DNA of 64,000 bases from a virus (IMGVR_UViG_3300043178_000179); one strand, 5' to 3'; counted from the first letter of the stretch, positions 45,992-64,000 are shown. The notes: generated from the letters alone by a model not told the origin. Numbers and translations: made by a program.

Positions 45992-45995
45992 CTTC

Positions 45996-46874: not shown

Positions 46875-46878
46875 CTTT

Positions 46879-47095: not shown

Positions 47096-47100
47096 CCTTG

Positions 47101-47541: not shown

Positions 47542-47614
47542 GCAGGCGAGAGGCCAACGGTGGCCGCCTGGCCTTCCAAGCCGGGACGGACGGGTTCGAT
47601 CCCCGTCGCCTGCT
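47542..47614 (+). tRNA. tRNA-Gly (TCC), U73
   Basis: Acceptor GCAGGCG/CGCCTGC. Loop ctTCCaa. Confidence 0.7.
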
Positions 47615-47618
47615 CCTT

Positions 47619-47691
47619 GCCCGCAGGAGTGCGACTGGCAGCATGCTGGCCTTGTAAGCCGGCCGTCCCGGTTCGAGTCCGGGTGCGGGCT
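47619..47691 (+). tRNA. tRNA-Thr (TGT)
   Basis: Acceptor GCCCGCA/TGCGGGC. Loop ctTGTaa. Irregular D-arm. Confidence 0.65.
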
Positions 47692-47696
47692 TTCGG

Positions 47697-47772
47697 CGGC
47701 GCGTAGCTCAGGTGGGAGAGCACCAGCTCGACAAGCTGGGGGTCGCAGGTTCGAGCCCTGCCGCGCCGACCA
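47697..47772 (+). tRNA. tRNA-Val (GAC), CCA encoded
   Basis: Acceptor CGGCGCG/CGCGCCG. Loop tcGACaa with C33. Confidence 0.7.
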
Positions 47773-47915
47773 TCGACTGCACGGACACTCCTACACAAGT
47801 CCTCCGGATGCCCTGTCCGTGCGCCGCTGCGGGCGGTTTCGTTGGGGCGACAGGGGCTCAGGCTGGCCGGCGGGCCGAAGCACGCGCCTGGTAGAAGGCG
47901 CGTGGCGCCGGCAAC

Positions 47916-47988
47916 GGGGACGTAGCTCAGTTGGGAGAGCGCGGCGTTCGCAACGCCGAGGCCACGGGTTCGACTCCCGTCGTCTCCA
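47916..47988 (+). tRNA. tRNA-Ala (CGC) with the G3-U70 identity pair
   Basis: Acceptor GGGGACG/CGTCTCC. Loop ttCGCaa. Confidence 0.85.
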
Positions 47989-47992
47989 CCTT

Positions 47993-48065
47993 GGGGTCGT
48001 AGCTCACCTGGGAGAGCGCCAGAATGGCATTCTGGAGGTAGAGGGTTCGAGTCCCTTCGACTCCA
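47993..48065 (+). tRNA. tRNA-Ala (GGC) with the G3-U70 identity pair
   Basis: Acceptor GGGGTCG/CGACTCC. Loop atGGCat. Confidence 0.85.
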
Positions 48066-48067
48066 CT

Positions 48068-49336
48068 TCACCTCGGGCAGGCGAGCCCGGTGCTGGGCGC
48101 GTCCCAGCGCTCGTACTCCTTGGCGAGCACGTCCTCGATCCCGGCTCTCGGGTTCTCGGCTCGCCAGGCGGCGACCTGTTCGCGGATCGGGACGAAGCCG
48201 TAGGCGACGTTCTTGTCCTCGAACACGGTGATCGGTCGGCCCTCGCGCTTCCACCGGGCCACGACGGGGTTCCAGGTCCCGGTCCTCCGGAGCTTGGCGA
48301 CGCGCTTCTCGGGGAAGAGCGCCATCTGCGCGCCCCGCAGCGCGACGGCCTCGGCCTCCCACCGTTCGACCTCGCGGAAGAAGGCCGGCTCGATGACCGA
48401 CAGCGCCCAGTACCAGGACACGTCTTGGTACTTGCACATCATGCAGCCGGACTTCTGGACCCCGGAGAAGCCGCCGGCCGCGAGGATGCTCGGCTCGTCG
48501 AAGTGGGTGAGCCCGATCTGCCGCGCGGCCTTCTTCCGGGCCGCGGCGATCCGGTCTCGGTCGACCTTGGGGAGGCCGTCCAGGTCCTCGCGCTTGGTGA
48601 CCCCCATCTCGACGAGCGGGTAGGCGTCGCCCTCCCAGGCGAAGCGGCCCTTCTGGCTCGGCTCCAGCCGCAGCGCGCGCCGGGCCTCGTCGGCCGCGAT
48701 GCCGAGCAGCACGAGGTGGGACCGCCGGCGTCCCGCGAGCACGAACCGGTTCCACTCGGCGGTTCCGACGCCGAACCGTTCTCGACTCAGGTCGTCCATG
48801 AGTTCGCGGCCTGGCTCGACCTTGTGGTTCATGGTGCAGTCGGCCGGCTTCTTGAGGATGATCATGCGCCGGCTGGCGTAGTCGTCGAGGATCGGCGGTC
48901 GCCGGTGGTAGTAGCCCCGCGCGGCGCGGGCCTCGATGCTCTTCGGCGGGTCGCGCCGCCAGGGCGGGGTCAGCACGGGCAGGCGTTGCCCGGGCCGGGC
49001 CTCGCGCATCCGGCCGAGCTCGCGCAGCCAGGCGATCCACCCGTCGGGGCCCTTGGCCGGGGGCTTGCGCTGGACGATGAACCGCAGTCCGTGCCGGCTG
49101 GTGAGCTTCTCGATCCTCGGGATCAGGTCGTAGGTCGCGGGCCACTCGGCGCCGGGATCGGTGAACACGACGGCGTCCACGTCGCCCGGCCGGATGGTCT
49201 CGCCGTCCGCGATCAGTCCGGGCCCGACGAGCAGCAGCAGCATGGTGATGCTGTCGCGGCCCAGGCCGAGTCGGAGCACGACGAGGCGGTCCTTCTTCGC
49301 GCCCTTCGCGGCGTCGAGCAGCGCGTCGAGGTCCAT
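48068..49336 (-). CDS. PAPS reductase-like PP-loop family protein (third, divergent paralog) carrying the N-terminal DLDALL motif; lies inside the tRNA array
   Basis: 'MDLDALLDAAKGAKKDR' then 'LVVLRLGLGRDSITMLLLL' (degenerate PP-loop). 'GCMMCKY'. Confidence 0.5.
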   Translation of the reverse strand: MDLDALLDAAKGAKKDRLVVLRLGLGRDSITMLLLLVGPGLIADGETIRPGDVDAVVFTDPGAEWPATYDLIPRIEKLTSRHGLRFIVQRKPPAKGPDGWIAWLRELGRMREARPGQRLPVLTPPWRRDPPKSIEARAARGYYHRRPPILDDYASRRMIILKKPADCTMNHKVEPGRELMDDLSRERFGVGTAEWNRFVLAGRRRSHLVLLGIAADEARRALRLEPSQKGRFAWEGDAYPLVEMGVTKREDLDGLPKVDRDRIAAARKKAARQIGLTHFDEPSILAAGGFSGVQKSGCMMCKYQDVSWYWALSVIEPAFFREVERWEAEAVALRGAQMALFPEKRVAKLRRTGTWNPVVARWKREGRPITVFEDKNVAYGFVPIREQVAAWRAENPRAGIEDVLAKEYERWDAPSTGLACPR

Positions 49337-49394
49337 GGCCTCAAGCGTAGCCCGGCTTGACCTCCGCCGGCCACGGAACTACGTCGCGGTCGTG

Positions 49395-49607
49395 AGCGAG
49401 CCTCCGACCCCCGAGCGCATCGTGGCCGCGATCGAGTCCTGGCAGGCGGACCCTTACGTCCACCCGCTGACTTGCGGCTGGGACTCGCAGAACCACCGGC
49501 CGCTGCGGCCCCGCCGCGACGGGGACCAGGTGGTGCTGGTCTGCGAGGACTGCGACTACGTCCAGCGCTGGGTTCCGGCCGTGGTGCTGGGCCGCACGGG
49601 AGCGTAG
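49395..49607 (+). CDS. small Cys-containing protein
   Basis: GTG start. 'LTCGWDS...LVCEDCDYV'. The 3' end overlaps tRNA-Ala by 10 nt. Weak call. Confidence 0.25.
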   Translation, partial: SEPPTPERIVAAIESWQADPYVHPLTCGWDSQNHRPLRPRRDGDQVVLVCEDCDYVQRWVPAVVLGRTGA

Positions 49608-49670
49608 CTCAGTTGGGAGAGCATCGGCTTTGCAAGCCGGGGGTCGCGGGTTCGAGTCCCGCCGCTTCCA
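49598..49670 (+). tRNA. tRNA-Ala (TGC) with the G3-U70 identity pair
   Basis: Acceptor GGGAGCG/CGCTTCC. Loop ttTGCaa. Confidence 0.85.
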
Positions 49671-49677
49671 CCTTTCG

Positions 49678-49761
49678 AGCAGGGGTGCAGCATCGGTTCC
49701 GCTGGGAGGGCTCATAACCCTCCGGCTTCGGCCCAACCGGGTTCGACTCCCGGCCCTGCGT
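49678..49761 (+). tRNA. atypical class-II-like tRNA: CAU anticodon plus a 14-nt variable arm, A1-G72 mismatch
   Basis: D-stem cagc/gctg. Anticodon hairpin gaggg-ctCATaa-ccctc. Variable hairpin cggc-ttcg-gccc. T-arm ccggg-ttcgact-cccgg. Confidence 0.4.
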
Positions 49762-49769
49762 CCTTCTTT

Positions 49770-49841
49770 GCCCGCGTAGCCGACTGGGAAGGCGGCGGTC
49801 CTACAAACCGCTTCATGCAGGTTCGATTCCTGTCGCGGGTA
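49770..49841 (+). tRNA. tRNA-Val (TAC)
   Basis: Acceptor GCCCGCG/CGCGGGT. Loop ccTACaa. Confidence 0.8.
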
Positions 49842-49848
49842 CTTCGTC

Positions 49849-49923
49849 GCTGCCGAAGACGAAGCGGTCCAGTCACTGGTCTTTCAAGCCCGTCATTAGC
49901 GGGTTCGAGTCCCGCCGGCAGCA
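49849..49923 (+). tRNA. tRNA-Glu (TTC)
   Basis: Perfect acceptor GCTGCCG/CGGCAGC. 3-bp D-stem. Loop ctTTCaa. One U-C mismatch in the anticodon stem. Confidence 0.6.
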
Positions 49924-49930
49924 CCTTCAC

Positions 49931-50003
49931 GCGCCCGTAGCTCAGCTGGAAGAGCACCGACCTTCTACGTCGAGAGTCGTGGGTTCGATTCCCTCCGGGC
50001 GTA
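49931..50003 (+). tRNA. tRNA-Arg (TCT)
   Basis: Acceptor GCGCCCG/CGGGCGT. Loop ctTCTac. Confidence 0.7.
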
Positions 50004-50004
50004 C

Positions 50005-50078
50005 GTCCCCGAAGCTCAATGGAGGAGCGCCGGTTTCCTAAACCGGGCCAGTTGCGGGTTCGAGTCCCGCCGGGGACA
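50005..50078 (+). tRNA. tRNA-Arg (CCT)
   Basis: Perfect acceptor GTCCCCG/CGGGGAC. Loop ttCCTaa. Confidence 0.75.
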
Positions 50079-50123
50079 CCTTTCGTCCTGTCCGACAGCC
50101 ACGTTTGCGATTATGGATCGGTC

Positions 50124-51457: not shown

Positions 51458-52300
51458 GTGGAAGGTGTCCCGCTCGCGCTGGTGCTGAGTTCGCTGCTGG
51501 CGGCCCCCGTCGTGCTGCGTCCCCGCGGGTCCGGAGACCGTCGTCCCCACCCCCAGGTCGCCGCCGTGATGGCCCCGCATCCCGACGCCGCGGCGTTGCT
51601 CGGCTACCTCGCGAGGCCCTCGCTCGTGGGCTGGCAACAGGTCCGAAACATGGTGATCCCCCGGTCGGGAGAGCTTGGTCCGCCGTTCGGTGGGCCCACG
51701 GTCTGGCAGGCGGTGGTCGAGTACGGCTGGTCCCAGGCCGGAGGCGGCGAGTCCGCGGCGCCCTGGAACTGGGAGGACCCGCGGGCCTACCCCGACCGGC
51801 TGGGTCTCCATCCGCCGCCCGTCGTCGTCGAGAAGGCGATCCTGTCCGCGCTGGGGCGGCCGTACCTCGGGGAGGTCGAGTCGGAAGCGCCGCTCCGGCA
51901 GCGGGCAGCGCCCGCGAGGCCGGCGCCCCGGACGCTTCCGGGTCCGGCCATCCCGCTCTACTACGGCGAGAACCGTCAGCAGCGGTTCTGGCAGGGGGCA
52001 CCGGTCGAGATCGGGCTCCGGGTGTTGCTCTTCGAGCACAAGCGCGAGCCGGGATACTGGACGGTGATCACGCAGGCCCGCGGCGAGAGCCCGCGGGTGT
52101 TGACCCGTCGCCGGAGCGGCCGGACGACGGAGACCGTCTCCGCTGGCGGCCCAACGGCCGCCGCCGCGCTGCGGGATGTCGCGCGGCATCACGCCTTGAA
52201 GCTCACGCTCTCGCAGGACTACCACTGGGGGCTCCGCCGCGGTAAGGTGGCGCTGGTGGCCGGCCCCTGGCGCGGCGAGATCCTGGAGCCCGAGCGATGA
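51458..52300 (+). CDS. hypothetical protein
   Basis: GTG start, 280 aa. Confidence 0.45.
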   Translation: MEGVPLALVLSSLLAAPVVLRPRGSGDRRPHPQVAAVMAPHPDAAALLGYLARPSLVGWQQVRNMVIPRSGELGPPFGGPTVWQAVVEYGWSQAGGGESAAPWNWEDPRAYPDRLGLHPPPVVVEKAILSALGRPYLGEVESEAPLRQRAAPARPAPRTLPGPAIPLYYGENRQQRFWQGAPVEIGLRVLLFEHKREPGYWTVITQARGESPRVLTRRRSGRTTETVSAGGPTAAAALRDVARHHALKLTLSQDYHWGLRRGKVALVAGPWRGEILEPER

Positions 52301-52845
52301 AGGACGGAGCGGTACTGGCGATCGGCGCGGCCGCGCTTGCGGCCGCCGGCGCCGCGCTCGCGCGGTCGTCCGGAAGCCGTGCCGCGCTCGCCGGTCGGGT
52401 GGTCCACCGGTTCCCGGACGGCTGGACGGTCCAGGACCTCTTCAACCCGATCAACCCGATCCTGCTGATCTCGGAGGGCCAGGCGCTCCAGAACACGGTC
52501 CTGCACCCGATCTGGTTCGAGGGGATGTTGCGGGGGAAGTGGCGGGTCCAGAGCCTGCGTCGCCCGGACGGCGAGTCCATGCTGACGCTGATCGTGACCA
52601 AGGACAACCGGGTCGGGGTGGCCCGCGGCCACTGGGACCGCCTGCCCGGCAGCTTCGTTCCCGGGTTCACGGACACGCCCACGACCGTCCGCGAGGAGCT
52701 GACCGAGAAGTTGACCGAGGAGCTTCTCCAGACGGAGTGTGAGCACCTCGTCGCCTACGTTCGCACGATCCAGCCAACCGGCCCGCTGCGCGCGGACGTC
52801 CGCGCCTGCATGGAACGGCTCGGCATCGAGGAAGAGGAGGACTGA
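52297..52845 (+). CDS. paralog family member (short): N-terminal A/L/G-rich segment plus the conserved 'RFPDGWTVQ...SLRRP...GHWDR' C-terminal domain
   Basis: ATGA-coupled. The domain is shared with the 52849 and 55457 genes. Confidence 0.5.
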   Translation: MKDGAVLAIGAAALAAAGAALARSSGSRAALAGRVVHRFPDGWTVQDLFNPINPILLISEGQALQNTVLHPIWFEGMLRGKWRVQSLRRPDGESMLTLIVTKDNRVGVARGHWDRLPGSFVPGFTDTPTTVREELTEKLTEELLQTECEHLVAYVRTIQPTGPLRADVRACMERLGIEEEED

Positions 52846-52848
52846 GAG

Positions 52849-54000
52849 ATGGCCGTTCGTAGTGGTGCAGCGGTCGCGCTCGGCGCGGTGGCCGCGATGG
52901 CGGCGGTCGCGGCCGTGGGTTCCCGTCGCGGGTCGTTCCAGCAGGTCACGCCGTTCATCCAGGCGCTGCTGCGGATCCGCAACGAGTACGGGGCCGACCC
53001 CGAGGTGGTCATCCGAGCGCAGGACTTCGTGCTCCGGGCCTCGATCGAGGGCGTCCAGGTCCTCGCGGGCACGGACGGCCCGACCTCGATGCTGGAGGAC
53101 GAGGCGACGAACATCCCCGGCCCGGGGGGTCTGCTCGGCTACATGGACTTCCAGGCCGGGCTGTTGCGTGCCGGCCGCTACTACGTCGACACGGTGAGCC
53201 GCGCGTTGCCGACGCACGAGTCCAGGTACCAGCGGTTCATCCCCTGGATCGCCCGCGAGGTCGCCCGGATGGTCCGAGCGGAGCGCGCGAAGCGCTCGAA
53301 GGACCAGCAGAGCCTGATCGCGGACCTCGCGGCTTTCAACCGGGAGCTCCCCCGGATCGCGGACTACGCCGGGACCGCGCGGCCGAACCTCCTCCAGATG
53401 ACCTGGCCGCAGGCGAAGGAAGCCTCGGACCGGTGGCACACCGAGATGCAGGAGGTCCTGCGCCAGCGGGCGGAGAAGGCGAAGCTCAAGGCGCTCAAGC
53501 AGGGCGGCCGGGTGATCCACCGCTTCCCGAACGGCTGGACGATCCAGGAACTCTACACCAAGGCCCACCTCGACGTCGAGGGCGACTACATGCACCACTG
53601 CGTCGGGAGTTCGACGCACTACTGGAACGAGGTGCAGCGCGGGAACTACAAGATTGTGAGCCTCCGGCGTCCCACGGGCGAGTCGATGCTCACGATCACG
53701 GTGCAGCTCCCCGGGAACACGATCCTCTACGCGCTGGGGCACTTCGACCGGGCGGCCGGCACCCGCGAGCGGGTGGAGTCCTACGCCCCGGGCATCGCGA
53801 AGATGCTGACGGACGAGATGCTCCTGGACGAGTGCCGCGCGCTGTTGGAGTACCAGCAGATGCTGACGCCCGGTGCTCAGCCCACGGGGCACCTGGCTCG
53901 CTGCGCCGAACGGGTGCACGCGGCCGAGGAGAAGGCTCGGCGCCAGCTCGCGGCCCGCCAAGGCGGCCCCCAGGGTCGTCATCAGGGCCGTCGTCGGTGA
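52849..54000 (+). CDS. paralog family member (long form) with the 'RFPNGWTIQ...HHCVG...SLRRP...GHFDR' domain
   Basis: N-terminus 'MAVRSGAAVALGAVAAMAAVAAVGSRRGS'. The N-terminal region also parallels the 55457 gene. Confidence 0.5.
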   Translation: MAVRSGAAVALGAVAAMAAVAAVGSRRGSFQQVTPFIQALLRIRNEYGADPEVVIRAQDFVLRASIEGVQVLAGTDGPTSMLEDEATNIPGPGGLLGYMDFQAGLLRAGRYYVDTVSRALPTHESRYQRFIPWIAREVARMVRAERAKRSKDQQSLIADLAAFNRELPRIADYAGTARPNLLQMTWPQAKEASDRWHTEMQEVLRQRAEKAKLKALKQGGRVIHRFPNGWTIQELYTKAHLDVEGDYMHHCVGSSTHYWNEVQRGNYKIVSLRRPTGESMLTITVQLPGNTILYALGHFDRAAGTRERVESYAPGIAKMLTDEMLLDECRALLEYQQMLTPGAQPTGHLARCAERVHAAEEKARRQLAARQGGPQGRHQGRRR

Positions 54001-55460
54001 TCGCGTCCTCGCTGGCGCTCGGCGCGGCCGCGGCGCTCGCCATGGCCGGATCGGCCGCCGCCCGCAGGATCTGGTCCCGCGAGGACGCGGTGCGCTTGCG
54101 CCGGCGGTTCGATGCTGGCGAGACGACCGCCCAGATCGCCGCGGCGGAGGGCGTCACGCTCCAGGCCGTGGCCGACCTGTGGCGCCGGCACCGCCTGTCC
54201 GGTCACGTTCGCGGCCGGCGTCGGGTCTACACCGACGAGCAGGCGGCCGCGTGGCGTCGGATGTACCTCGACGGCATGAGTTGGGCCGAGGTCGGCGCGA
54301 CGGTGGGCTTGTCGGCCAACGTCGTCCGCAAGCGGGTCGAGCGGTGGGAGTCCCGCCGCTGGCCTTCCGGGTCGATGGCCCGCTTCGACTACGGCACCGC
54401 CGATCGCCTGCTGGGCGCCCGGGCATCGAAGCGGCTGTCCGGCCGGGAGACCCGGCTGGAGCGGGACGGGAACGACATTCGGGTGGTCTACCACCGCACG
54501 CCCGTGGTGACGCTTCACCCGGACGGGACCTACACGCTCCGCGCCAACGGCTGGGAGACCCTCAGCACCTTGCAGCGGTTCCACGACTACTCCCCGGCGC
54601 GAGTCTTCGGGCGTGGCAGGCCGATCGACACCTTCTACATCGCGCACCGGAGCGACCCGTTCCACGAGCGCTTCTTCGACGGTGCCCGCGTGGACGCCTC
54701 GGGCGTGCTGCTCAACCCCCGAGAACCCGTCCGCCGGATCGGGTCGACCAATGGCCGGCCCTTCGCGTTTGCCGCCGGCGATCTGCTGGTCGGTGATCAA
54801 GGCGGTGGCATCCCGGTCTTCCTGGAGGTTCTCGCTGTCAAGCCCAGGGCGGTCCTCGCCAGGAGGTATGGCTTCAAGATGACCCTCCAGGGGGAGGACG
54901 GCGAGCCCGTGTTCGTGATGGACCGCGCGAAGTCCATGGGTGAGCTGGACTACCTCCTGGAGCCGGACGGCTCGCTGTTCGGCGTCCAGCGCCTGCGGCG
55001 CTCCGGAGGTCGAGTCCCGCAGGGAAGCCTCAACCCGAGGGATCTCGGCAGTCCGGCCCGCAAGCGGGGCCTCACCTCGTCCGAGGTCGCGGCCGCGTGG
55101 GCCGGATCCCGTTTCGGCGTGTCCAAGACGGGGGACTACTGGACCGACGGCGAGACGCTCTGGTCCTACAAGCTCACGATCGGGCAGACCATCGACGGCC
55201 GGAAGATCGTCTGGGACTATCGCGCCTCTCCCCATCGCCGCTCGGTGAGCCTGACGACCTCGCGGCACGTCGACCGGGCCGCCGCGGTCGCGGACGAGGT
55301 CTGGCCGCCCGAGGGCGTCGCGCGCCTCGATCGCCCGCGGATCGGTCCGCCGGACCGCCCTCCTCCGCGGCACGAGCTGCGTCCGCCCCGCCCCGGCTCC
55401 ATCTGGCGGCCCATCGATCCCGTCACGGGCCGGGTCTGGCGCCCGCGGGGCCGCCTGTGA
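53997..55460 (+). CDS. hypothetical protein with HTH motifs and a hydrophobic N-terminus
   Basis: GTGA-coupled. 'TTAQIAAAEGVTLQAVADLWRRH' and 'MSWAEVGATVGLSANVVRKRVERW'. Confidence 0.5.
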   Translation: MIASSLALGAAAALAMAGSAAARRIWSREDAVRLRRRFDAGETTAQIAAAEGVTLQAVADLWRRHRLSGHVRGRRRVYTDEQAAAWRRMYLDGMSWAEVGATVGLSANVVRKRVERWESRRWPSGSMARFDYGTADRLLGARASKRLSGRETRLERDGNDIRVVYHRTPVVTLHPDGTYTLRANGWETLSTLQRFHDYSPARVFGRGRPIDTFYIAHRSDPFHERFFDGARVDASGVLLNPREPVRRIGSTNGRPFAFAAGDLLVGDQGGGIPVFLEVLAVKPRAVLARRYGFKMTLQGEDGEPVFVMDRAKSMGELDYLLEPDGSLFGVQRLRRSGGRVPQGSLNPRDLGSPARKRGLTSSEVAAAWAGSRFGVSKTGDYWTDGETLWSYKLTIGQTIDGRKIVWDYRASPHRRSVSLTTSRHVDRAAAVADEVWPPEGVARLDRPRIGPPDRPPPRHELRPPRPGSIWRPIDPVTGRVWRPRGRL

Positions 55461-56599
55461 ACGGGACGTCCCTCGCCATCGGTCTCGCGGCGGTCGTCGC
55501 GCTGCCTTCGGTCCTCCGCCGTGGCGGTTCCCTCGCGCGCTCCGGCTTGCAGGAGCAGTTGTTGCGCCTCAAGAACCAGTGGAAGGCCGATCCCGAGGTG
55601 GCGATCCGGGCGCAGGACCTCGTGCTGACGATCCTCCCCGGCGATCCGGTCGGTCCGGCCGGGCTGCCGGGCCTGTGGGAGACCAACGCGCAGCTCCTGT
55701 ACGACGTTCGCAAGCTCGGCGGCCACGGCCTGGACGACTACCTGGCGCTGGTAAGCCGGCAGATCGCGGCCAACGAGCACTTCTCGAAGCGCCTGTTGTC
55801 GGTCGACATCGCCTGGCAGCGGTACATCCCCTGGATCGGCCGCGAGGTGGGTCGCCTGATCCGGGCGTCCCGCCGGAACGAGATCCCGGTGCGGCAGCCT
55901 CGCTGGGGCTCGTCCGAGTCGCAGGAGTCCGCGCTGTTGCGCGAGATGCAGTCCCTGCGGAACCAGTTGCCCCGGGTCCTGGACTGGGCGATGGCGACCG
56001 GGCCGGACCTGATGACGCTGCGGTTCAAGCAGGCGAAGGCCAGGTCCGACCGTTGGCACGCGCAGGGCGCAGGCGGTGAGGGGCTCACGGTCGCCCGAGG
56101 GGTGCCGCTGCCCGGCGAGGTCGTCTACCGCTTCGCCGACGGTTGGACGGTGCAGCGCCTGGGGAGCTTTCGCCACCTCCAGTCCGAGGGCCAGGTGCTC
56201 CACCACTGTGTCGGTCGGGGGACCTACTACTGGGACGGTGTCGTCTCCGGGAAGTGGACCATCGAGTCGCTCCGCGATCCGAAGGGGAAGCCCTACGTGA
56301 CGCTGACGGTTCTGCCAAACGGCCGGATCATCTACGCGAAGGGGCACTTCGACCGTTTGGCCGGCGAGCGCATGGAGCGGCGCTACGCTCCGTCCACCTA
56401 CGACAAGCTGACCGACGAGGCGCTCGACCTGGAGTGCCTGCGCCTCGACGAGTACCAGCGCTTCCGGGATCCGCCCCCCGGGGATGTCGCGAGCGACCTC
56501 GTCACCTGCGCGCGTCGCCTGGAGCTGATCCAGGCCCGCGCCGCCGCGCAGGCTCAGGCCAAGGCCCGTGCCCAGGGCCAGGGGCGTTCCACGGGATGA
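55457..56599 (+). CDS. paralog family member (long form) with the 'RFADGWTVQ...HHCVG...SLRDP...GHFDR' domain
   Basis: GTGA-coupled. N-terminus 'VNGTSLAIGLAAVVALPSVLRRGGS'. Confidence 0.5.
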   Translation: MNGTSLAIGLAAVVALPSVLRRGGSLARSGLQEQLLRLKNQWKADPEVAIRAQDLVLTILPGDPVGPAGLPGLWETNAQLLYDVRKLGGHGLDDYLALVSRQIAANEHFSKRLLSVDIAWQRYIPWIGREVGRLIRASRRNEIPVRQPRWGSSESQESALLREMQSLRNQLPRVLDWAMATGPDLMTLRFKQAKARSDRWHAQGAGGEGLTVARGVPLPGEVVYRFADGWTVQRLGSFRHLQSEGQVLHHCVGRGTYYWDGVVSGKWTIESLRDPKGKPYVTLTVLPNGRIIYAKGHFDRLAGERMERRYAPSTYDKLTDEALDLECLRLDEYQRFRDPPPGDVASDLVTCARRLELIQARAAAQAQAKARAQGQGRSTG

Positions 56600-57186
56600 T
56601 CGCGCTCCGGCCGCTGCCCTGGTCCGCCGACGCGCTGGAAGGGTGGCTCTCGGCGCGGACGGTCGCGGCGCACCACGGGCAGCACGAGGCGGGGTACGTC
56701 CAGGCGCTGAACCGGATGACGGCCGCGGCGCCGGGTCTTCGCAATCTTCCCGTCGAGCGGCTGATGCTCGGGCGGACCGATGCCCGCCCGATCGCCGCAC
56801 AGGTCTACAACCACCGCTTCTACTGGGAAGGGCTCGCGCCGACTGCCACGCCCTCGCCGCCGCCGCCCGGTCCGCTCCAAGCGGAGATCGAGCGGACGTT
56901 CGGGTCTCTCGGTCGGCTCCGTGGCCGGTTCCTCTTCCTCGCGAACGCGGTCCTGGGATCGGGATGGTGCTGGCTCACCTGGAACGGCCGGGCGCTCGTC
57001 GTCGAGGTGACGAAGGACGCGGACAACCCCGTGCAGGCGGGCCGAGTACCGCTGTTGGCCTGCGACGTGTGGGAGCACGCCTACTACCTCGACTACGAGA
57101 GCCGCCGCGGCGACTACCTCAAGGGGTTCTGGAACGCGGTCGCCTGGGACGTCGTCGCGCTGCGTCTCCGCCTCGCGCGCCTCTGA
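56596..57186 (+). CDS. Fe/Mn superoxide dismutase
   Basis: 'AAHHGQHEAGYVQALN' (HHxxHHxxYV) and 'DVWEHAYYLDYESRRGDYLKGFWNAVAWDVV' (SOD C-terminal signature). ATGA-coupled. Confidence 0.85.
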   Translation: MIALRPLPWSADALEGWLSARTVAAHHGQHEAGYVQALNRMTAAAPGLRNLPVERLMLGRTDARPIAAQVYNHRFYWEGLAPTATPSPPPPGPLQAEIERTFGSLGRLRGRFLFLANAVLGSGWCWLTWNGRALVVEVTKDADNPVQAGRVPLLACDVWEHAYYLDYESRRGDYLKGFWNAVAWDVVALRLRLARL

Positions 57187-57202
57187 GCCGGTCCGTCCCG
57201 CG

Positions 57203-58411
57203 GTGCGCCCGGGTTATCCTAACGAGGCCGTGGCCAGAGCGCTCCGACATCGTCGCGGTTCCCGCGCATCGCCGCCGACGCTGACCCGCGACGGCTTCCC
57301 CTGGCCGCCCGGGGTGGACCTGTACCACGCCACGACCGGGCTCCGTGCGATCCGCCGCGAGGGTTTCAGGACCCGCCGCGAGCTGGGTGCCGCCGCGCTG
57401 GGCGGCGGGCCGTCGACGGCCGTGAGCCTGACGATCGACTTCCGGGTGGCCGCGAGCATCGCGCTCGGCCTCCGGGTGCTCTCGCTGGGGGCGCGGCGCG
57501 ATCTGTCGCTCCGGGACCTGCTCGACTTCGCCGCGGTCGAGACGCCGAAGGCATTGCGCGCAATCCAGGCCGGGGCCAAGAGGGACTACGGTCTCGACGA
57601 CGAGACGATCGCGAGGCTGGACGACGGTTGGGTGCTGGAGCGGACGCCCGGGATGCTGAGCGGTCGTCGGCTGCCTCCCGGCGCGCTCCCAGGCCAGCCC
57701 TACTTCATGGGTCGCCGGGACGTCTCGGGTCATCCATTGGAGTACGTCTCCTGGTGGATCCGCGGCCCGGCTGCCACCGAGGAGTGGGCGGTCCGCTCCT
57801 GGCAGGGGAACGAGCCCTTCTACAACCTCTACCAGCTCATCCTGGCCCACGGTGAAGGCGAGAAGGAGTGCTTCAACCCGCTCTTCTTCGGCACGGACCT
57901 GGCGTCGCTCGGGCGCGTGTCGGCCGACGACATCGGTGTGCTCGCGGTCCAGGCGGACATCCCGCGGGTCTGTCCGGACGTGCCCGGGACGGTGGGGCTC
58001 GGGTATCTCGATGAGCGCCTGGCCCGCTACTGGGCGGGGTGGTTGAACGACACGTTCGGCTACGACTGTCCGCAGGACCTCTCGTGCCTCGCCGAGCACG
58101 GGAAGCCGTTCCGCTCCACGCGGCGCAGCATCCTGGACTACCCAGGTCCGGCGAAGCCGGAGATCGGCCCGTGGCGGGTCCTGGACGAGGGCGAGCGTCG
58201 GCCGCAGGATACGATGGCCTACCTCAGCTCGCTCGCGGAGTTCCGGGTGTACGACCCGCGCCGGATCCGTGTGCTGGAGGCCACGTCGATCCTGGAGTTG
58301 CAGCGCAGCTCCCGCTGGGGCGGTCGCGCGACCTACCCGTACTTCCGGCCGGGCGAGGACCTCGTCGGCCTCCGCCCGGGCACCCGGGTGCTGGCCGGGG
58401 CTGTCGCGTGA
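57203..58411 (+). CDS. hypothetical protein
   Basis: 402 aa, protein-like. Confidence 0.45.
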   Translation: MRPGYPNEAVARALRHRRGSRASPPTLTRDGFPWPPGVDLYHATTGLRAIRREGFRTRRELGAAALGGGPSTAVSLTIDFRVAASIALGLRVLSLGARRDLSLRDLLDFAAVETPKALRAIQAGAKRDYGLDDETIARLDDGWVLERTPGMLSGRRLPPGALPGQPYFMGRRDVSGHPLEYVSWWIRGPAATEEWAVRSWQGNEPFYNLYQLILAHGEGEKECFNPLFFGTDLASLGRVSADDIGVLAVQADIPRVCPDVPGTVGLGYLDERLARYWAGWLNDTFGYDCPQDLSCLAEHGKPFRSTRRSILDYPGPAKPEIGPWRVLDEGERRPQDTMAYLSSLAEFRVYDPRRIRVLEATSILELQRSSRWGGRATYPYFRPGEDLVGLRPGTRVLAGAVA

Positions 58412-59493
58412 AGGCGCGGCTGCACCCCTACGCATCGGCCACGCCGGGCGAGCTGCACGGAGCTGGGGCGCTGTGGCATAGCCAGTCCGAGCGCGGCCTG
58501 AGCCCGCGCCGGATGGACTGGCGGTACGAGCCGGCCTACCCGGTCGCCTCGCTCAAGCCGCTGATGCCCGAACGTGCCACCTGGCGGAGCTGGTGGGAGA
58601 CCGAGGTCCAGTATCGGACCGCGGAGTGGGGCTGGTCGGCCGAGCGCTTCGTCGAGTGGTGGCTCACCTCGCCCGAGGCCCAGCTCTGGGGTCCAAGCTG
58701 GAAGTGGGCCGTGAACGAAACCGGAGGGTCCATGGCCAAGAAGCCGAAGCCCGGCCGCGGCTGGCGGTACCGTGTGCTCACGGCGCTGATCGTCCCGACC
58801 GCGTTTCTCCGCGAGTTGTCGCAGCGTGGCGACCCACGCTTCTTCGCGCCCCGGTCGGGTCGCCTGTATCGCATGGGCTGTCCGTGGCTCCGTTGGCCGC
58901 CGTTCGACGTCCACTACGAGCTGCGGGTCCGCGCCCCTGTGACCGCCAGTCCAGAGCCGGTCGGCCCAGCTGCCGCGGTGCCGGCATCCAGCATCGTCGT
59001 CGAGACGACCATCTGGGCCAACCACGACATGTCGCAAGAAAACGCGGCGAACATCGCCTGGGGCATCATCGAGGACCAACTGCTCGACCGTGTCCCGCTG
59101 CCGCCGCCCGACCTTTCGGTGCTCGGTCCGCCACCGACGCCGAGACCGTTCCGTTGGGAGGTCCTGCGCGCGCACGAAATCTGGCGGCCGACCTGGAAGC
59201 TCTCCCCGCGCCAGCGGAGGACCATGGGCAGCCGCGCCATCGTCCATCCCCGCACCTGGCGGGTCGACGGTGTCGTCGAGTTCGGTGCGTCACGGTCCGG
59301 CCAGTTCTACGTCAAGGCCGGATCCGCGCGCGGCGCGGAGAAGGTTGCCGAGCGAGTGCTCCGTGGCGAGCGGATCCGTGGCCAGCCGCTTCTCAGGGAC
59401 ATCGAGTGGCGGACGAGCCGCCAATGGCACGGCGTCCGGGCCTACAACGCGGAGCACATCCCGCTCCCGAGCGACCCACCGAGGCGCAGGTGA
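58408..59493 (+). CDS. hypothetical protein
   Basis: GTGA-coupled, 361 aa, Trp-rich. Confidence 0.45.
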   Translation: MKARLHPYASATPGELHGAGALWHSQSERGLSPRRMDWRYEPAYPVASLKPLMPERATWRSWWETEVQYRTAEWGWSAERFVEWWLTSPEAQLWGPSWKWAVNETGGSMAKKPKPGRGWRYRVLTALIVPTAFLRELSQRGDPRFFAPRSGRLYRMGCPWLRWPPFDVHYELRVRAPVTASPEPVGPAAAVPASSIVVETTIWANHDMSQENAANIAWGIIEDQLLDRVPLPPPDLSVLGPPPTPRPFRWEVLRAHEIWRPTWKLSPRQRRTMGSRAIVHPRTWRVDGVVEFGASRSGQFYVKAGSARGAEKVAERVLRGERIRGQPLLRDIEWRTSRQWHGVRAYNAEHIPLPSDPPRRR

Positions 59494-61202
59494 CGACACA
59501 AGAATACGTGTACGCCGGGTCGAGCGAGCATTGCCTCACGGTCCTCGCCCGTGGCCTCGTCGCGCCATCTTGGCTTCCGGGTGTACCGCTCACGACGGAC
59601 CCGGCCCGCGCCGAGCGCCGCGCGATCCCTGGGCCACTCCTGGTCGCTGGGGTGTACCGGGCGCCTCGGAGCAAGATCGGGGGGATGCGCCCGGACCCCC
59701 GCCCCGGGGCCATCTCCGGCGTCGACTTCGTCGCGCCGCGCGTCCCGCCGGAGACGCTGGAGGTGCAGGAGCAGGAGGATGGCCCGTGGGAGCCGATCGA
59801 GGACGTCCTCGGGCACCTCCAAGAGGGGATCGCGGTGTCGGTGCGCCGTGCGCGTCGCGGGAGCGCCGGCGCGCTTCCGCCCGTGCTGCTCACGGAGGAC
59901 GTGCAGTCGCTCCGGCGACTGCTCTCGGGCGACTCGCTTAGCCCCGTGGCGCTCTGGCTCGACCTGGCCGCCGGCGCGCTCCGGGCCTTCGGCTCGGGCA
60001 GGGGCGAGGTCATCTTCGAGATCCAGCCGCGGCACCGCCGCATCATCATCGACGGCGCGACGCTCTACGAGATCGCGGTGCTGCGTGCCCTTCGAGAGCT
60101 CCATCGGAGGATCCCTACCATGCGCCCCTGGCAGGTGACGGTGGACAACACGCCGCCCCTGACGCTGCACGAGGTCGTCTTCAATCCGCCGACGGACCTT
60201 GCCCGTGGACTTCCGCCGCTCTACCACGGGACGAGCGACTCTGCGTGGCGGAGGATCCAGTTCGAGGGTCTGCGTCCTCGCGGCGAGGGTGGCCCGGTCT
60301 ACGGGGGTGTCCTGAACCCTTCCAGGCCGGATCGGGTCTACCTCACGACCTGGGACTCGATGGGCGTCGCGCTCTTCGCCGCCCGCGCGGCCGTCAAGGC
60401 TCACGGTGGTGAGCGCGTGGTGCTCCGGATCGCGCCGGAGGCCCTGGATCCGAAGTTGCTGGAGCCCGACGAGGACTCGCGGATGTTCACCTGGCAAGGG
60501 AGCATCCGCCGGACGGGGACCGTGGCCTACCGCGGAGTCATCCCGCCCACGGAGATCACGCTGGCCTACGAGCCGGACCACGAGGACGCGCCGCCCTTCG
60601 AGGGGAGCCGCGCCCGGGTCCTTGCTGCGATGCCGCGAGACGAGCTGGATCGCCTTGCCGCTGGCGGTGGGCCGATCCGGCTCGGTGAAGCTGCGCCATT
60701 CCGGATCCGGTGGAAGCCGATGGACGAGGACTGGAAGCGGCGCTTCGACCAGCACACCGGGGATCCCTTCGAGCTGCCGGTCGGCTGTCGCGACTTGCCA
60801 CCGGCTGTGGTGCAGGCGGATCGCGCCCGGAAGGAGCAGCTCCTGGCGGGGCTCCTCGCCTGGGGCGGGGACCGCGTGAGCCTTTCGCGCTGGGACGACG
60901 ACTTGCCGCTCATCGTCTCGCACGGGCAACTGTGGAGTGGCCGCGGAGCCCTTCGCCGCCCGGGCGAGCCGGGCCGGTGTCACGGAAATGTCGCACGATT
61001 CTGGGAGCGGAGTCCGGAGAAGCTGCTCATCGCGACCGGGTACGGGCTCTCGGCGGACGGGATGTGGCGGCAGCACACCTTCGGCGTCGAGCTGGCGGGC
61101 GGCCGACCCCGGATCGTCGAGACGACGGTCCCCCGCGTGGCCTATTTCGGCGCCGTGCTGGACGCGGCGCAGTCCCGGCGGTTCGCCCGGGAGAACGGGT
61201 GA
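59490..61202 (+). CDS. hypothetical protein with a possible ADP-ribosyltransferase-fold (Tpt1/KptA-like) segment
   Basis: 'PPLYHGTSDSAWRRIQFEGLRP' resembles the Tpt1 'FLYHGTAxxxxxxIxxxGL' motif. GTGA-coupled. Confidence 0.4.
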   Translation: MTTQEYVYAGSSEHCLTVLARGLVAPSWLPGVPLTTDPARAERRAIPGPLLVAGVYRAPRSKIGGMRPDPRPGAISGVDFVAPRVPPETLEVQEQEDGPWEPIEDVLGHLQEGIAVSVRRARRGSAGALPPVLLTEDVQSLRRLLSGDSLSPVALWLDLAAGALRAFGSGRGEVIFEIQPRHRRIIIDGATLYEIAVLRALRELHRRIPTMRPWQVTVDNTPPLTLHEVVFNPPTDLARGLPPLYHGTSDSAWRRIQFEGLRPRGEGGPVYGGVLNPSRPDRVYLTTWDSMGVALFAARAAVKAHGGERVVLRIAPEALDPKLLEPDEDSRMFTWQGSIRRTGTVAYRGVIPPTEITLAYEPDHEDAPPFEGSRARVLAAMPRDELDRLAAGGGPIRLGEAAPFRIRWKPMDEDWKRRFDQHTGDPFELPVGCRDLPPAVVQADRARKEQLLAGLLAWGGDRVSLSRWDDDLPLIVSHGQLWSGRGALRRPGEPGRCHGNVARFWERSPEKLLIATGYGLSADGMWRQHTFGVELAGGRPRIVETTVPRVAYFGAVLDAAQSRRFARENG

Positions 61203-62335
61203 CCGGCCTCGCGCTGGCTCTTGCGCCGGCCGCGATCCTCGCGGTCGCCGGGGTCCGTGGCAGCCGCGCCACGGCCAGGGCGCTGCGCGCCATGGCGCGC
61301 CGCACGCTCGCGAGCGGGATCTGTGGGGAGAAGCCGGAGTTCTTCCACGTCACCGTGGCCCGGTCGATGCCGGGCATCGTCGCGCACGGGCTGGTGCCAC
61401 CGGCCGAGCGCGGCGAGATCGTCTCGACCTTCGGTGAACGACTCGCACCGTGGGTCGCGGACAAGGTCTTCCTCACGGTCGGGGAAGAAGGGATCTCCAT
61501 CTGGGAGGACAACTGGCTCGTCTCCGACTCGGATCTCTCCATCGACGACCTCGTCGTGCTCCGGGTGCGGCCGGAGGCCGGGATCGAGAGGTTCGTCCGC
61601 GTGGACGAGAAGGCCAGGTCCGACGTGGGCGACGACTGCGCCTTCTACGTCAAGCGCCGGATCCCGCCCGAGCACCTCGACTTCTTCGACCGGAACAGGT
61701 TGGGCTGGCACCCGCTGAGCGGCTGGGCGGCGCGTCGCGCGTCGCCCTCCGGCGGCCGAAACGTAGTCGCGCCGAGCGGCTATCACCGGACGGCGCTGGC
61801 CCGCCGCGGCGCGAGCGTGCCGTTGCGGGTGGTCCAGGAGCGGTTTCCGGAGTGGCTGGGCGGCTCGGTGTTGGACTACGGGGCCGGTCGCGGGGCCGAC
61901 TGCAAGGTGTTGTCGCGGCGCGGTCGCGCAGCCTGCTACGACCCGCACCATCCGGATCCGAAGATGCGACGCCGCCCGGCCGGCACCTTCGGGATCGTGA
62001 TGCTCAGCTACGTGCTGAACGTGTTGCCGCCGAAGCCCCGCGCGCAGGCGCTACGGGAGGCCGCGCGCCATGTCGCGGTTTCGGGCCACCTCGTCGTCGC
62101 GGTCCGCGGGAAGGACGAGTCGGCCTGGGCGCAGGTGCGATCCAGTTGGTCGAAGTGCGAGGACGGCTACGTCCAGCGCGACGCGGCCGGGAGCGTCGAG
62201 AGGTTCCAGCGGTTCTTCACGCCGGCCGAGCTGCGCGCGTACTGCCGGCGGGTGCTGGGCGCCGCCTTCGTGGAGGAGCCGGGCCTGGTCGCGCCGTCCG
62301 GCACGGCGATGATGGCGCTCCGGAGGGTCCGCTGA
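61199..62335 (+). CDS. class I SAM-dependent methyltransferase domain protein (C-terminal) with a hydrophobic N-terminus
   Basis: 'VLDYGAGRGADCKVLSRRG' motif I. N-terminus 'VTGLALALAPAAILAVAGVRGS'. Confidence 0.5.
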   Translation: MTGLALALAPAAILAVAGVRGSRATARALRAMARRTLASGICGEKPEFFHVTVARSMPGIVAHGLVPPAERGEIVSTFGERLAPWVADKVFLTVGEEGISIWEDNWLVSDSDLSIDDLVVLRVRPEAGIERFVRVDEKARSDVGDDCAFYVKRRIPPEHLDFFDRNRLGWHPLSGWAARRASPSGGRNVVAPSGYHRTALARRGASVPLRVVQERFPEWLGGSVLDYGAGRGADCKVLSRRGRAACYDPHHPDPKMRRRPAGTFGIVMLSYVLNVLPPKPRAQALREAARHVAVSGHLVVAVRGKDESAWAQVRSSWSKCEDGYVQRDAAGSVERFQRFFTPAELRAYCRRVLGAAFVEEPGLVAPSGTAMMALRRVR

Positions 62336-63162
62336 TGCCGAAGCGGGTCGCCGGCAAGCTCTACGTCCATCGCACGGCCGTGCACACCTTGCCGCTGTGG
62401 GCCCAATCGGCGATCTCCCGCGCGCTCCCGCTGTTGCCGGCCGGCTTCCGGTGGACGCTGGTGCGGGTCGCCCCCGGCGAGGTCATGTTCGGTCGGACGA
62501 TGCCGTTTTCGCGGCCGCACCCGGAGCTGCTGGAGCGGATCCTCGTTCGCCGCGGCCGGGTCGTGGACCGCAGGTGGTATCGCGGGAACGGGCCCATCTA
62601 CCACCGGATCGAGCAGATGCTGGCGCCTGGGAGCAAGCACCGCGCCGAGGCGGAGCGTCGGACGCGACAGGAAGAGGCGCTCGGGTTGCTGGGTCGTCCC
62701 GACATCGGGACCGCGAGGGCCTGGCGCCGCGCCGGTGGCAGCATGGCCCGTGCTCCCTGGTTGTCCTGGCCATCGGTCACGGCCGGGGAGGTCTGGGCGC
62801 ACGTCGAAGCGGCCTGTCCGCACCGGGGTGGCCCTCGGGACGCGCGCCAGGCGATGGTCCCGCTGGAGAACTACGAGTGGTACGGCCCCGGCTCGATCGA
62901 CGTCCACCACCCGATGTTCCGGCGGCTCGAACCCGCGAGCGACCGCGACGTGCGCCGATACGCCAAGGCGATGCGCGCCGGTCGTGTGCCTCCCGCGGTC
63001 GTGCTGGTTGTCGACAACGACGGACAGAACGAGGAGCGGTTTTTCGTCGAGGACGGCGCCTCATGGCCCGGGGCCTGGTCCGTCGCGAACTGCGCCGGAC
63101 CGACGACCGGACCCGTCGCTCCTGGTTCTATTCCGCACCCATCGGCCATCCGGATTAGGATG
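62335..63162 (+). CDS. hypothetical protein (no in-frame stop before the next candidate start)
   Basis: ATG overlaps the upstream TGA. Frame 1 stays open to the end of the window, so this ORF is absent from the supplied ORF track. Confidence 0.35.
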
Positions 63163-64000
63163 TTTGTGATGACGGCCTTGGCGCTCGCGCTCGCTCCGGT
63201 CGCCGCGCTCGCGGCCGCAGGAACCCTGGCGCGCGGGAGCGCCACGCGGCCGGTGACGCTGCCCGAGGGGCTCCGGGTGCACGTCGCGCGTCCTTACGTC
63301 TCGCCTCGGGAGCGTCCGCTGACGCCGTCGGAGGCTTGGGTACGGGAGGTGGCCTACGGCTTGAAGGTACCCGAGCGCTGGGCGATCGAAGCCGCCGCGG
63401 CCGAGATGGCGCGGAGCGTGCCGGTCGGTCTGGGTGGCCGCCATCACCCGCACGTCTTGGTCCCGGTGCCCGCTTCCTCGGGCTCGGTGGCCGCGAACGC
63501 GGCGCTGGCAGCGGCCATCGCGCGCCGCACGGGCGGCCGGGTACGTTCGTTGCTGGGCCGGGCGGCCGCGGTCGCGCCATCGCACGTCCGCCATCGTGCC
63601 GGCCTTTCTCCTCTCTCCGAGGCGCAGCACCGGATGCTCTCTACGGGCGTGCCGCAGGTGCCCGTGGTCTACCTGGTGGACAACGTGCTCACGAGCGGGA
63701 ACACGCTGCGCGCGGCTCGCGCCGCGCTGGGAGCGGGGGAGGGCCTCGTCTGGGCGAGCCACCATGTCCGGCCCTCGGTCGGAAGCCGCGCGGCGCATCG
63801 CGCATCGCCCCAGGAGTTCGGCGAGCTGACCTTCGAGAGCGCGGCTGCTCCGGGCTGGAGCCTGACCTGGAGCTGGGAGGGCGAGGGGCTCTCCGGGGAC
63901 TACGAGCCCGACGATCCGGACGACGTGCCGGTGCTTCGGGCGACGCTGGCCCGGGACCGCGAGATCGTCGACGATGGCAGCTACGCGACGCTGGCCCCGA
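63163..64000 (+). CDS. ComF/GntX-like phosphoribosyltransferase-domain protein (3' partial), hydrophobic N-terminus
   Basis: 'MFVMTALALALAPVAALAAAGTLARGS'. PRTase motif 'VPVVYLVDNVLTSGNTLRAARAAL'. Confidence 0.45.

Follow-up and report, generated by a model that had tools for sequence, protein, structure and literature searches.

Proteins can be held at the cytoplasmic membrane by a reverse signal-anchor, as in the Pf3 coat protein and the first transmembrane (TM) domain of the lambda holin S105, in which a short N-tail of zero or negative charge precedes a single helix, a basic flank follows it, and the downstream chain stays cytoplasmic without cleavage; such N-out insertion depends on the N-tail charge, YidC and the proton-motive force (pmf) (PMC8548208). 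Phage proteins can also be addressed to the virus particle, and N-terminal capsid-targeting sequences of up to 30 residues are established for T4 IPIII and P1 DarB, while the P1 Dar proteins share no consensus (PMC9024508). Here we describe an N-terminal tag with a clear consensus in a 64,000-nt stretch of one strand of the viral sequence IMGVR_UViG_3300043178_000179 (the window; all coordinates are counted from its first letter). The tag, about 30 residues long, opens at least eight genes of this element, and two divergent copies and one decayed copy are also present. The results show that the tag is portable, translated, charge-asymmetric and under strong selection at the peptide level. It is probably a sorting signal that directs all its bearers to a single site, for which the cytoplasmic side of the cell membrane is the likeliest candidate and the virus particle a possible alternative.

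The tag begins with a neutral or acidic cap that contains a conserved Gly (...N/T-D/N/S-G-x), followed by a helix, a basic hinge and a flexible linker to the cargo domain. The helix comprises 16 weakly hydrophobic residues rich in Ala, Leu and Gly and starts with W/L-L-A-L-G-A, and the hinge reads R-(R)-G-S-(R). The consensus of a hidden Markov model (HMM) built from 17 tags is MDGTWLALGAAAALAAAGAARRGSRARLS, and MSGEWLALGAVAALAAAGSRRGSR is an example of the tag. In an ungapped alignment of 33 tags, numbered from the Trp as position 0, Gly occupies position -2 in 29 of 32 tags, and Trp at 0 (18/33), Leu at 1 (26/33), Ala at 2 (27/33), Leu at 3 (28/33), Gly at 4 (25/33, otherwise Ala) and Leu at 9 (22/33) are conserved as well. 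Arg is found at positions 16 and 17 in 16/33 and 12/33 tags, and Gly and Ser are the commonest residues directly behind the Arg pair. The Trp and the Arg pair keep a constant spacing, in the manner of interface anchors, and the N-tails are 0-12 residues long. A first-pass annotation of this DNA had pointed to Ala/Leu/Gly-rich N-termini ending in '(R)GS' at 52297, 52849, 53997, 55457, 61199 and 63163. All six N-termini were found as quoted, but the gene at 53997 carries RR without GS. Across 43 tags, GS is present in 65%.

The net charge before the helix is zero or negative in 38 of 43 tags (mean -0.14), confirming the earlier remark that a positively charged n-region is absent, while the 10 residues after the helix carry a mean charge of +2.5, and 42 of 43 tags are more positively charged behind the helix than in front of it. 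Acidic residues often immediately precede the helix, and two to four Arg residues stand directly behind it. This charge distribution bears on whether the segment could be an ordinary cleavable Sec signal peptide for periplasmic export, which the first-pass annotation had named as a competing possibility. The segment is indeed N-terminal, hydrophobic and Ala-rich with A-x-A-like triplets near the helix end, and the element does use a classical lipoprotein signal, at 31574. However, A-x-A triplets are unavoidable in Ala-rich sequence and hence uninformative, the n-region is not positive, the Arg residues behind the helix would block export of the downstream chain, and the cargo needs DNA, S-adenosylmethionine (SAM) or phosphoribosyl pyrophosphate (PRPP). 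With its charge grammar reversed in this way, we consider the segment very unlikely to be a Sec signal peptide.

The uncharged run has a mean length of 19 residues, with a Kyte-Doolittle mean of 1.3-2.2 over 19 residues and an Ala+Gly+Ser+Thr fraction of 0.47-0.74 in the best 19-residue window. No face of the helix is polar, and the tags contain no Cys. The weak hydrophobicity is similar to that of the signal-anchor-release (SAR) sequences of P1 Lyz and R21.

At 71% GC, the value across the whole window, codons for Ala, Gly, Leu and Arg dominate, and several of the genes have alternative downstream starts; the tag might thus be a compositional accident, a product of mis-called starts or a repeated DNA element. 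The controls make such an artefact scarcely credible. A six-frame search with a regular expression (at least 14 uncharged hydrophobic residues, then R..GS) gave six matches in the window, all at the starts of tagged genes, and a single match in some 0.6 Mb of further related loci, of which many have 66-70% GC. With the tag HMM, true tags score 17-43 bits, while the best other six-frame score in about 0.9 Mb is 12.3 bits on L075:19030, a probable weak tag, and the rest are at or below 10 bits. In 770 kb of IMG/VR DNA preselected for a GxWLALGA codon pattern, the maximum score is 16.4 bits and no full tag was found. The exact DGTWLALGA codon pattern has no match in IMG/VR, and the looser GxWLALGA pattern occurs in 86 IMG/VR stretches, which served as the negative control and contain a full tag in no case.

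A DNA repeat at the gene junctions was also rejected, as nine tag DNAs share only 57% column identity and differ most at third codon positions. Within the window, identical residues use different codons in 54% of cases. Contig L075 carries six GEWLALGAVAALA tags, near-identical peptides whose codon positions 1 and 2 show an identity of 0.90 and whose position 3 shows 0.49; the corresponding values are 0.88 and 0.60 for the tags of L166, and 0.95 and 0.84 for those of L165, where the copies are recent. The peptide is kept while third codon positions are scrambled, indicating strong purifying selection on the peptide rather than a DNA repeat. This selection acts on the exact peptide and not on hydrophobicity alone, which points to recognition by a common partner. 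Recurrence of the tag in other phages at 61-67% GC further argues against an artefact of composition.

With a gene caller trained on the codon usage of the window, a co-directional gene run was found from 51458 to beyond the window end, in which nearly all starts overlap or abut the preceding stop. The starts of g2, g4 and g5 overlap the stops of g1, g3 and g4 (ATGA, GTGA and GTGA, respectively), and a strong GAGGAGGA Shine-Dalgarno sequence lies upstream of g3. Because these stop-coupled starts are reproduced in independent gene calls on two other assemblies, the mis-assigned starts that the first-pass annotation had raised as a concern do not account for the tags. The annotation had placed the tagged genes within 52297-64000; tags are present there, but g14 and g12 lie outside this range. 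The stop codon of g14 shares bases with the ATG start of the gene that follows (TGATG). The genes SOD, g8, g9 and g11a inside the run are untagged. The tagged genes are listed in Table 1 together with other features of the window.

Table 1. Coordinates of tagged genes and other features of the element (canonical and divergent classes according to the tag HMM).
Feature	Coordinates	Strand	Content	Tag coordinates	Tag or N-terminal sequence	Tag class	Tag HMM score (bits)
g14	9201-9404	minus	67 aa	9312-9404	MPTSDGTVLALGTVAAMAAATTLFPRGGGSR	canonical	17.4
g12	12644-13183	plus	Pfam YunG (1e-14)	12644-12724	VNGGWLALGASAGLALAAGVPRGAAAR	canonical	24.7-27.2
g1	51458-52300	plus	280 aa	51458-51544	VEGVPLALVLSSLLAAPVVLRPRGSGDRR	divergent, tag-like; matches the regular expression	-4
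g2	52297-52845	plus	short PcfJ-like paralogue	52297-52380	N-terminus MKDGAVLAIGAAALAAAGAALARSSGSR	canonical	20.1
g3	52849-54000	plus	PcfJ-like (Pfam PcfJ 7.6e-11)	52849-52935	N-terminus MAVRSGAAVALGAVAAMAAVAAVGSRRGS	canonical	25.5
g4	53997-55460	plus	helix-turn-helix (HTH)-type DNA-binding protein	53997-54080	N-terminus VIASSLALGAAAALAMAGSAAARRIWSR	canonical	22-23
g5	55457-56599	plus	PcfJ-like paralogue (Pfam PcfJ 1.1e-7)	55457-55540	N-terminus VNGTSLAIGLAAVVALPSVLRRGGS	canonical	32.5
g7	57203-58411	plus		57203-57265	VRPGYPNEAVARALRHRRGSR	decayed	
g10	61199-62335	plus	ADP-ribosyltransferase (ART)/Tpt1-like motif region and dnd-related SAM methyltransferase	61199-61267	VTGLALALAPAAILAVAGVRGSR; N-terminus VTGLALALAPAAILAVAGVRGS	divergent	4.8
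g11	62335-64000+	plus	single open frame, 620 aa in L003, ends at window-equivalent 64197				
g11b			ComF-like phosphoribosyltransferase (PRTase) motif region	63160-63249 (plus)	MFVMTALALALAPVAALAAAGTLARGSATR; N-terminus from about 63160 MFVMTALALALAPVAALAAAGTLARGS	canonical	20.8 (as isolated peptide)
g13	L003:7129-7776 (window-equivalent 64194-64841)		just past the window			canonical	
SLT + PG_binding_1 protein	141-2696		851 aa				
First gene of a similar pair	6286-7494		about 400 aa				
Second gene of the pair	28313-29503		about 400 aa				
Small protein after the SPFH lipoprotein gene	32467-32703		78 aa				
tRNA region	33246-50080		43 tRNA genes and a tmRNA (ARAGORN)				
Suppressor-type tRNA	34276-34351		anticodon TTA, would read UAA				
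CHAP endolysin	41025-41855					untagged	
Odd tRNA	42478-42563		anticodon called as two bases				
tmRNA	46506-46875		tag ANNNNHFEARAAA				

The divergent copies in g10 and g1 have only the architecture in common with the canonical tag, and the membership of g1 in the tag set is uncertain. In g7, the RRGSR hinge is retained (RHRRGSR) and the hydrophobic helix is gone; its homologue L075:4784-6307 is tagged, as is the g4 homologue L075:20352. The earlier cargo labels of methyltransferase, HTH and PRTase fared unequally. The methyltransferase of g10 is solid (Methyltransf_23, 1.3e-7; TIGR04096, 4.5e-14), and the HTH domain of g4 shows Sigma70_r4, GcrA and HTH_23 matches below the Pfam thresholds but matches a regulator family, PHROG 323, at 7.9e-8, whereas the evidence for a PRTase in g11b consists of the motif and a PyrR match at E=0.036.

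The tag of g11 requires separate consideration. A tag is present where the first-pass annotation had placed a gene start, at 63163, but no separate open reading frame begins there, as a single frame stays open from 62335 onwards, beyond the end of the window. The tag is hence internal, barring a restart of translation at ATG 63160, GTG 63166 or ATG 63169. The first part of g11 (g11a) corresponds to the C-terminal domain of the TIGR04096-type family. The sequence AGGA lies 5-8 nt before GTG 63166 and ATG 63169, in an AT-richer stretch. For every tag that the caller placed inside a protein, an in-frame Met stands directly in front of it, which makes a separate start codon for g11b plausible but unproven. 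Alongside this, g10 and the first 275 aa of g11 (61199-64000 and L003:4134-7132) match one 496-aa protein, P0003, that combines the methyltransferase and the C-terminal domain. A TGATG junction thus divides the family into two genes in this element, and the C-terminal portion runs on in frame into the next tagged gene, g11b. A motif region reminiscent of Tpt1/ART, (L/F)(Y/F)H(G/A/V)T...G(L/F), is shared by g7, g9 (59490-61202) and g10 (g9 versus g10, BLASTP 1e-4), and it has no Pfam match.

In g13, a +3 loop is followed by a second hydrophobic segment and then by a domain with an LAS/M15-like motif. The strings SGTRTAAEQ, SRHMVGDAFD and PHLHVE, read by eye, fit the LAS/M15 zinc-peptidase pattern (SxHxxGxAxD, HxH), and Pfam, PHROGs, NCBIfam, PDB sequences and tblastn gave no support for this putative, motif-level assignment. 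BLAST links g13 to the untagged L165:16708.

The first-pass annotation had proposed that related phages be examined for the segment, and the same tag does open 5-12 genes per contig in five other uncultured phage contigs. At least 11 tagged genes are found in L075 (61% GC), including a C5 DNA methylase (4e-41), an LFHVTT ART-like motif protein and a ParB-C-like protein; L070 has three, L165 (67% GC) at least eight, and L166 (61% GC) at least eight, including an ART-PolyVal gene that neighbours lysozyme and peptidoglycan (PG)-binding genes. Altogether, 33 of 174 predicted proteins of tag-bearing contigs are tagged, with unrelated cargoes. The cargoes seen across all tagged genes are of cytoplasmic type and range over C5 and SAM methyltransferases, ART-PolyVal, ParB-C-like, HTH, YunG, PcfJ-like, ComF-like PRTase motif and RadC-fragment proteins. 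The RadC fragment was found in a tag profile search that returned 12 short proteins, mostly real tags; this search is no census. The presence of the tag on a given cargo can differ from phage to phage, as with the C5 methylase. The L030 protein MKTGTMVALGVGALAVFVLLRGSATRQVT was not counted; its hinge resembles that of g11b (13/30), but it scores only about 2-4 bits with the tag HMM. No Pfam or NCBIfam model matches the tag region of the scanned proteins, and the strings WLALGA, GTWLAL and GEWLAL were not found in the literature searched.

The PcfJ-like paralogues g2, g3 and g5 extend this distribution. A HMMER scan of 1.84 billion representative proteins yielded 2,406 PcfJ-like relatives, of which the closer ones are often tagged (examples are MSNGTWLALGALGVLGLAGAARGSRAV, MDGTWLALAVAGLLAVTGGRQRGSRAL and MARPTDGTLLAMAALGTLGALAVTRRGSLAKS), while the tag is missing from distant homologues found in IMG/VR, in JGI metagenomes and in a Lentisphaeraceae metagenome-assembled genome. 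The PcfJ-like domain also occurs within proteins of 1,000-3,500 aa. A word-indexed homologue search with g3, in which low-complexity words dominated, returned g3 itself only.

Two further N-terminal signatures were observed. The first, (M)DLDALLxRA, is often duplicated and is found in the window at 16414, 16914, 17607, 19023 and 48068-49336 (minus strand) and elsewhere at L003:7776, L069:2900, L075:14635 and L073:1733; its cargoes include PAPS-reductase-like proteins, a kinase-like protein and a 750-aa C5 methylase in L075. The hydrophobic tag is distinct from this family, as previously noted, and both tag types co-occur in the same genomes; in L075, one enzyme type, the C5 methylase, occurs with either tag. 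The second is a basic N-terminal tag, (K/R)(K/R)(R)TSR(R/G)..RRN(P/E), on runs of large proteins in more distant PcfJ-bearing phages (L011 269-7557 and 14370; L022/L030 697-9709; L067 13052-15577; L068 386; L004 2351), with MSEPKKKRTSRRNPEPE and MTRKTSRGRRMRRNEGP as examples and the PcfJ-like protein itself among its bearers.

We tentatively favour, at somewhat short of even confidence, a tag that tethers its cargo at the cytoplasmic face of the membrane and also docks on a common partner. The helix would insert into the cytoplasmic membrane as a reverse signal-anchor, with the short uncharged or acidic N-tail flipped outside in a YidC/pmf-type reaction and the Arg cluster retained inside, so that the cargo (DNA and SAM methyltransferases, ART-like, ParB-like, HTH, PcfJ-like and PRTase-like domains) would be held at the inner surface. 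An uncharged N-terminal helix that has a neutral or acidic tail in front and clustered Arg residues behind would by default insert N-out/C-in, and the cargo must stay inside the cell because its substrates (DNA, SAM, PRPP) are cytoplasmic. The second hydrophobic segment of g13 would look like the hairpin expected of a protein whose wall-acting domain has to end up outside. Through its small-residue face, the helix would probably also dock on one common, likely phage-encoded partner, gathering the tagged enzymes; this docking is proposed because the peptide is preserved much more exactly than a generic anchor would require. The conserved RRGS hinge would be a candidate processing or regulatory site. 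Membrane insertion, its topology, the partner and any role of RRGS are inferred.

Several observations weigh against membrane tethering. The Hessa-scale sums over 19 residues are +0.3 to +5 for the tags, whereas genuine TM segments in this window reach -2 to -2.6, and the 16-residue core is short with frequent Gly. A generic anchor would not need GxWLALGAxAAL to be kept residue for residue. The RRGS hinge outlives decay of the helix, both in g7 and in an internal copy in P0023, and would therefore have a role beyond the positive-inside rule. In addition, the cargo repertoire parallels proteins that other phages package and inject, and the g11 tag is internal unless an internal start is used. 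For comparison, the 78-aa protein encoded after the SPFH lipoprotein gene, which starts with MIATSSVALVALLLLGFVLGRS..., has a tag-like layout (an uncharged n-region and Arg behind the helix) with a strongly hydrophobic helix and a tag HMM score of about 0; it is an ordinary N-terminal anchor usable as a reference.

The parallel with packaged proteins raises the alternative that the tag is a propeptide for virion targeting, to a capsid or ejection complex, which we regard as the main rival, though less probable than the tether. The tag would dock on a head-assembly component and load anti-defence and host-takeover enzymes for injection together with the DNA, and RRGS would be the site of a maturation protease. 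Capsid-targeting sequences of this length and N-terminal position are known from T4 IPIII and P1 DarB (PMC9024508), and Iyer et al. described such cargo types as packaged and injected polyvalent proteins and as the P1 Dar repertoire (PMC5512222); the DNA methylases, ART-PolyVal, ParB-C-like protein, RadC fragment and lysozyme/PG-binding neighbours match that packaged repertoire, and the presence of the PcfJ-like domain inside very large proteins adds to the resemblance. The tag is residue-exact within a genome and drifts between genomes, which fits co-evolution with a phage-encoded receptor. RRGS persists without the helix, the internal g11 tag would be easier to explain with a cleavage or address module, and the different basic tag (KKRTSRR..RRNP) that related phages put on the same PcfJ-like family suggests that this family may need an address label. 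However, a 16-19-residue uncharged helix with an Arg flank should enter the membrane rather than stay soluble for head loading, and g13 has an apparent membrane hairpin. PHROG scans of the neighbours of tagged clusters gave no head, portal, protease or tail family. Prohead proteases cut at L/I-x-E in T4 and at S/A/G-x-E in phiKZ; RRGS is not known to match any prohead-protease site, and neither motif follows the tag.

In its boldest form, which we likewise hold to be a minority possibility, a phage-encoded receptor would read the tag as a dedicated address label, and an arsenal of separate anti-defence enzymes (methylases, ARTs, ParB-like, PcfJ-like and RadC-like proteins) would be loaded into the virion or ejection complex, cut at RRGS at maturation and delivered to the next host as a 'disassembled polyvalent protein'. 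The WLALGA...RRGS tag and the acidic DLDALL signature would then be two orthogonal codes for two destinations or timings.

The structure predicted for g3 was examined with AlphaFold2 (AF2; 20-sequence alignment, model m44fc0ce8a275). The mean predicted local distance difference test (pLDDT) value is 88, and that of the domain about 90, while the tag forms a helix at residues 6-24 with pLDDT 48-57, followed by a coil linker at 25-34, and shows no confident packing onto the domain. Foldseek searches of the model against the PDB gave nothing below E 0.4, with weak GNAT-like matches as the best. The first-pass annotation had suggested a membrane anchor or a second targeting peptide, and as a class this is supported: the peptide is translated, portable, conserved in other phages and selected, with a predicted helix detached from the folded domain.

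The same lack of packing is compatible with a soluble docking or oligomerisation tag, in which the helix would bind a phage hub or compartment, or bundle the tagged proteins, and phage Ser/Thr kinase-like proteins would phosphorylate RRGS as a switch. R-R-x-S is the consensus of basophilic kinases, the helix is selected for its specific sequence, the conservation of RRGS does not depend on that of the helix, and kinase-like genes are present in the element (L003:7776, Pkinase at a sub-threshold E=3.8e-4; L069:5164 with a GxGxFGxV loop). These kinase assignments are weak, however, and a fully hydrophobic helix without a polar face would be prone to aggregate when free in the cytosol. Clustering of all proteins of the tag-bearing contigs, which are fragments, with the tags masked gave no conserved candidate partner or receptor. 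We regard a soluble tag as improbable, and clearly less probable than virion targeting.

Returning to the membrane tether, we compared the tag with described signals. It appears to work most like a reverse signal-anchor or a capsid-targeting sequence and to fall outside the definitions of Sec, Tat, lipoprotein, prepilin, SAR and encapsulation signals. Compared with reverse signal-anchors, which it resembles in N-tail charge, single helix and basic C-flank, the tag helix is much less hydrophobic, near residue-exact, common to dozens of unrelated large enzymes and ends in RRGS. The SAR domains of endolysins and pinholins are likewise N-terminal, rich in Ala, Gly, Ser and Thr, and of borderline membrane propensity, but they are N-in/C-out with a basic n-region and wall-degrading cargo, while the tag has the reversed polarity and cytoplasmic cargo; the CHAP endolysin of the window is untagged. 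The targeting sequences of T4 internal proteins and Alt and of P1 DarB are also short portable N-terminal addresses on anti-restriction or host-modifying enzymes. Those known are amphipathic or polar, and the T4 sequences are cut at L/I-x-E, whereas the tag is hydrophobic and its loading into virions is a prediction. LPXTG, PEP-CTERM, GlyGly-CTERM and MYXO-CTERM signals combine a motif, a hydrophobic helix and an Arg cluster, and place one signal on many unrelated proteins, which implies a dedicated recognition partner; they are C-terminal with the cargo outside and undergo sortase-type processing, whereas the tag is N-terminal with its cargo on the Arg side, and we know of no processing enzyme for it. 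Phage phi29 p16.7 joins an N-terminal membrane anchor to a DNA-binding domain and is analogous to g4, but it is a single protein rather than the bearer of a family-wide tag and has no sequence similarity to it.

Other candidates were rejected. A class III type IV prepilin signal has a basic leader, Gly at -1, Glu at +5 and cargo outside the cell; the tag does have a Gly two residues before the Trp, but the leader is neutral or acidic, Glu at +5 is absent and the cargo is cytoplasmic. A Tat signal (S/T-R-R-x-F-L-K before the helix) and a lipoprotein signal (lipobox Cys after it) do not fit, as the Arg pair follows the helix and Cys is lacking. The encapsulation peptides of microcompartments and encapsulins have an amphipathic helix or a C-terminal hydrophobic-x-G-S-L-K/R motif. 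Some tags contain a G-S-L/R-A-K/R string, but this string is N-terminal and behind the Arg, and the helix has no polar face.

The window itself is treated as part of a large uncultured phage. Metagenome contigs of Logan SRR12687342 and JGI 3300043243 carry identical sequence, the longest on record being 95 kb, and BLAST of the region, g3 and g13 against 50,697 phage records gave no matches. Samples with members of the clade are SRR26786816, SRR12687342, JGI 3300072910 and 3300045300. The gene content includes HNH, Dam and C5 methylase, DUF5131 and PAPS-reductase-like genes, the CHAP endolysin and an SLT/PG-binding protein, and no structural gene was recognised in the element. A tRNA complement of the size found here suggests a large or 'huge' phage. 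The SLT/PG_binding_1 protein has no N-terminal signal and carries a C-terminal Ala/Leu/Gly hydrophobic segment ending in ...LGGLAAAAALLGVALSRPG*; such features are typical of an ejection protein or of a wall hydrolase associated with the virion. The N-termini of the two genes of about 400 aa, which lie 22 kb from each other, are near-identical (VAQGG[GE]VTRPRGLYVPFAGALGETLCLLGG...), each gene is preceded by a methylase-rich stretch, and the pair appears to stem from a recent duplication.

Shared portable sorting signals are rare in phages, and in P1, DarB alone has been shown to carry one. On some contigs, as many as half of the genes carry the tag described here, DNA methylases and ADP-ribosyltransferases included, and strong selection maintains it in several uncultured large phages. 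Wherever it leads, the tag makes a presumably co-localised group of host-takeover and anti-defence proteins directly recognisable from sequence, and it flags dozens of proteins without assigned function as members of one functional system. The tag could also become a tool for protein tethering or delivery.

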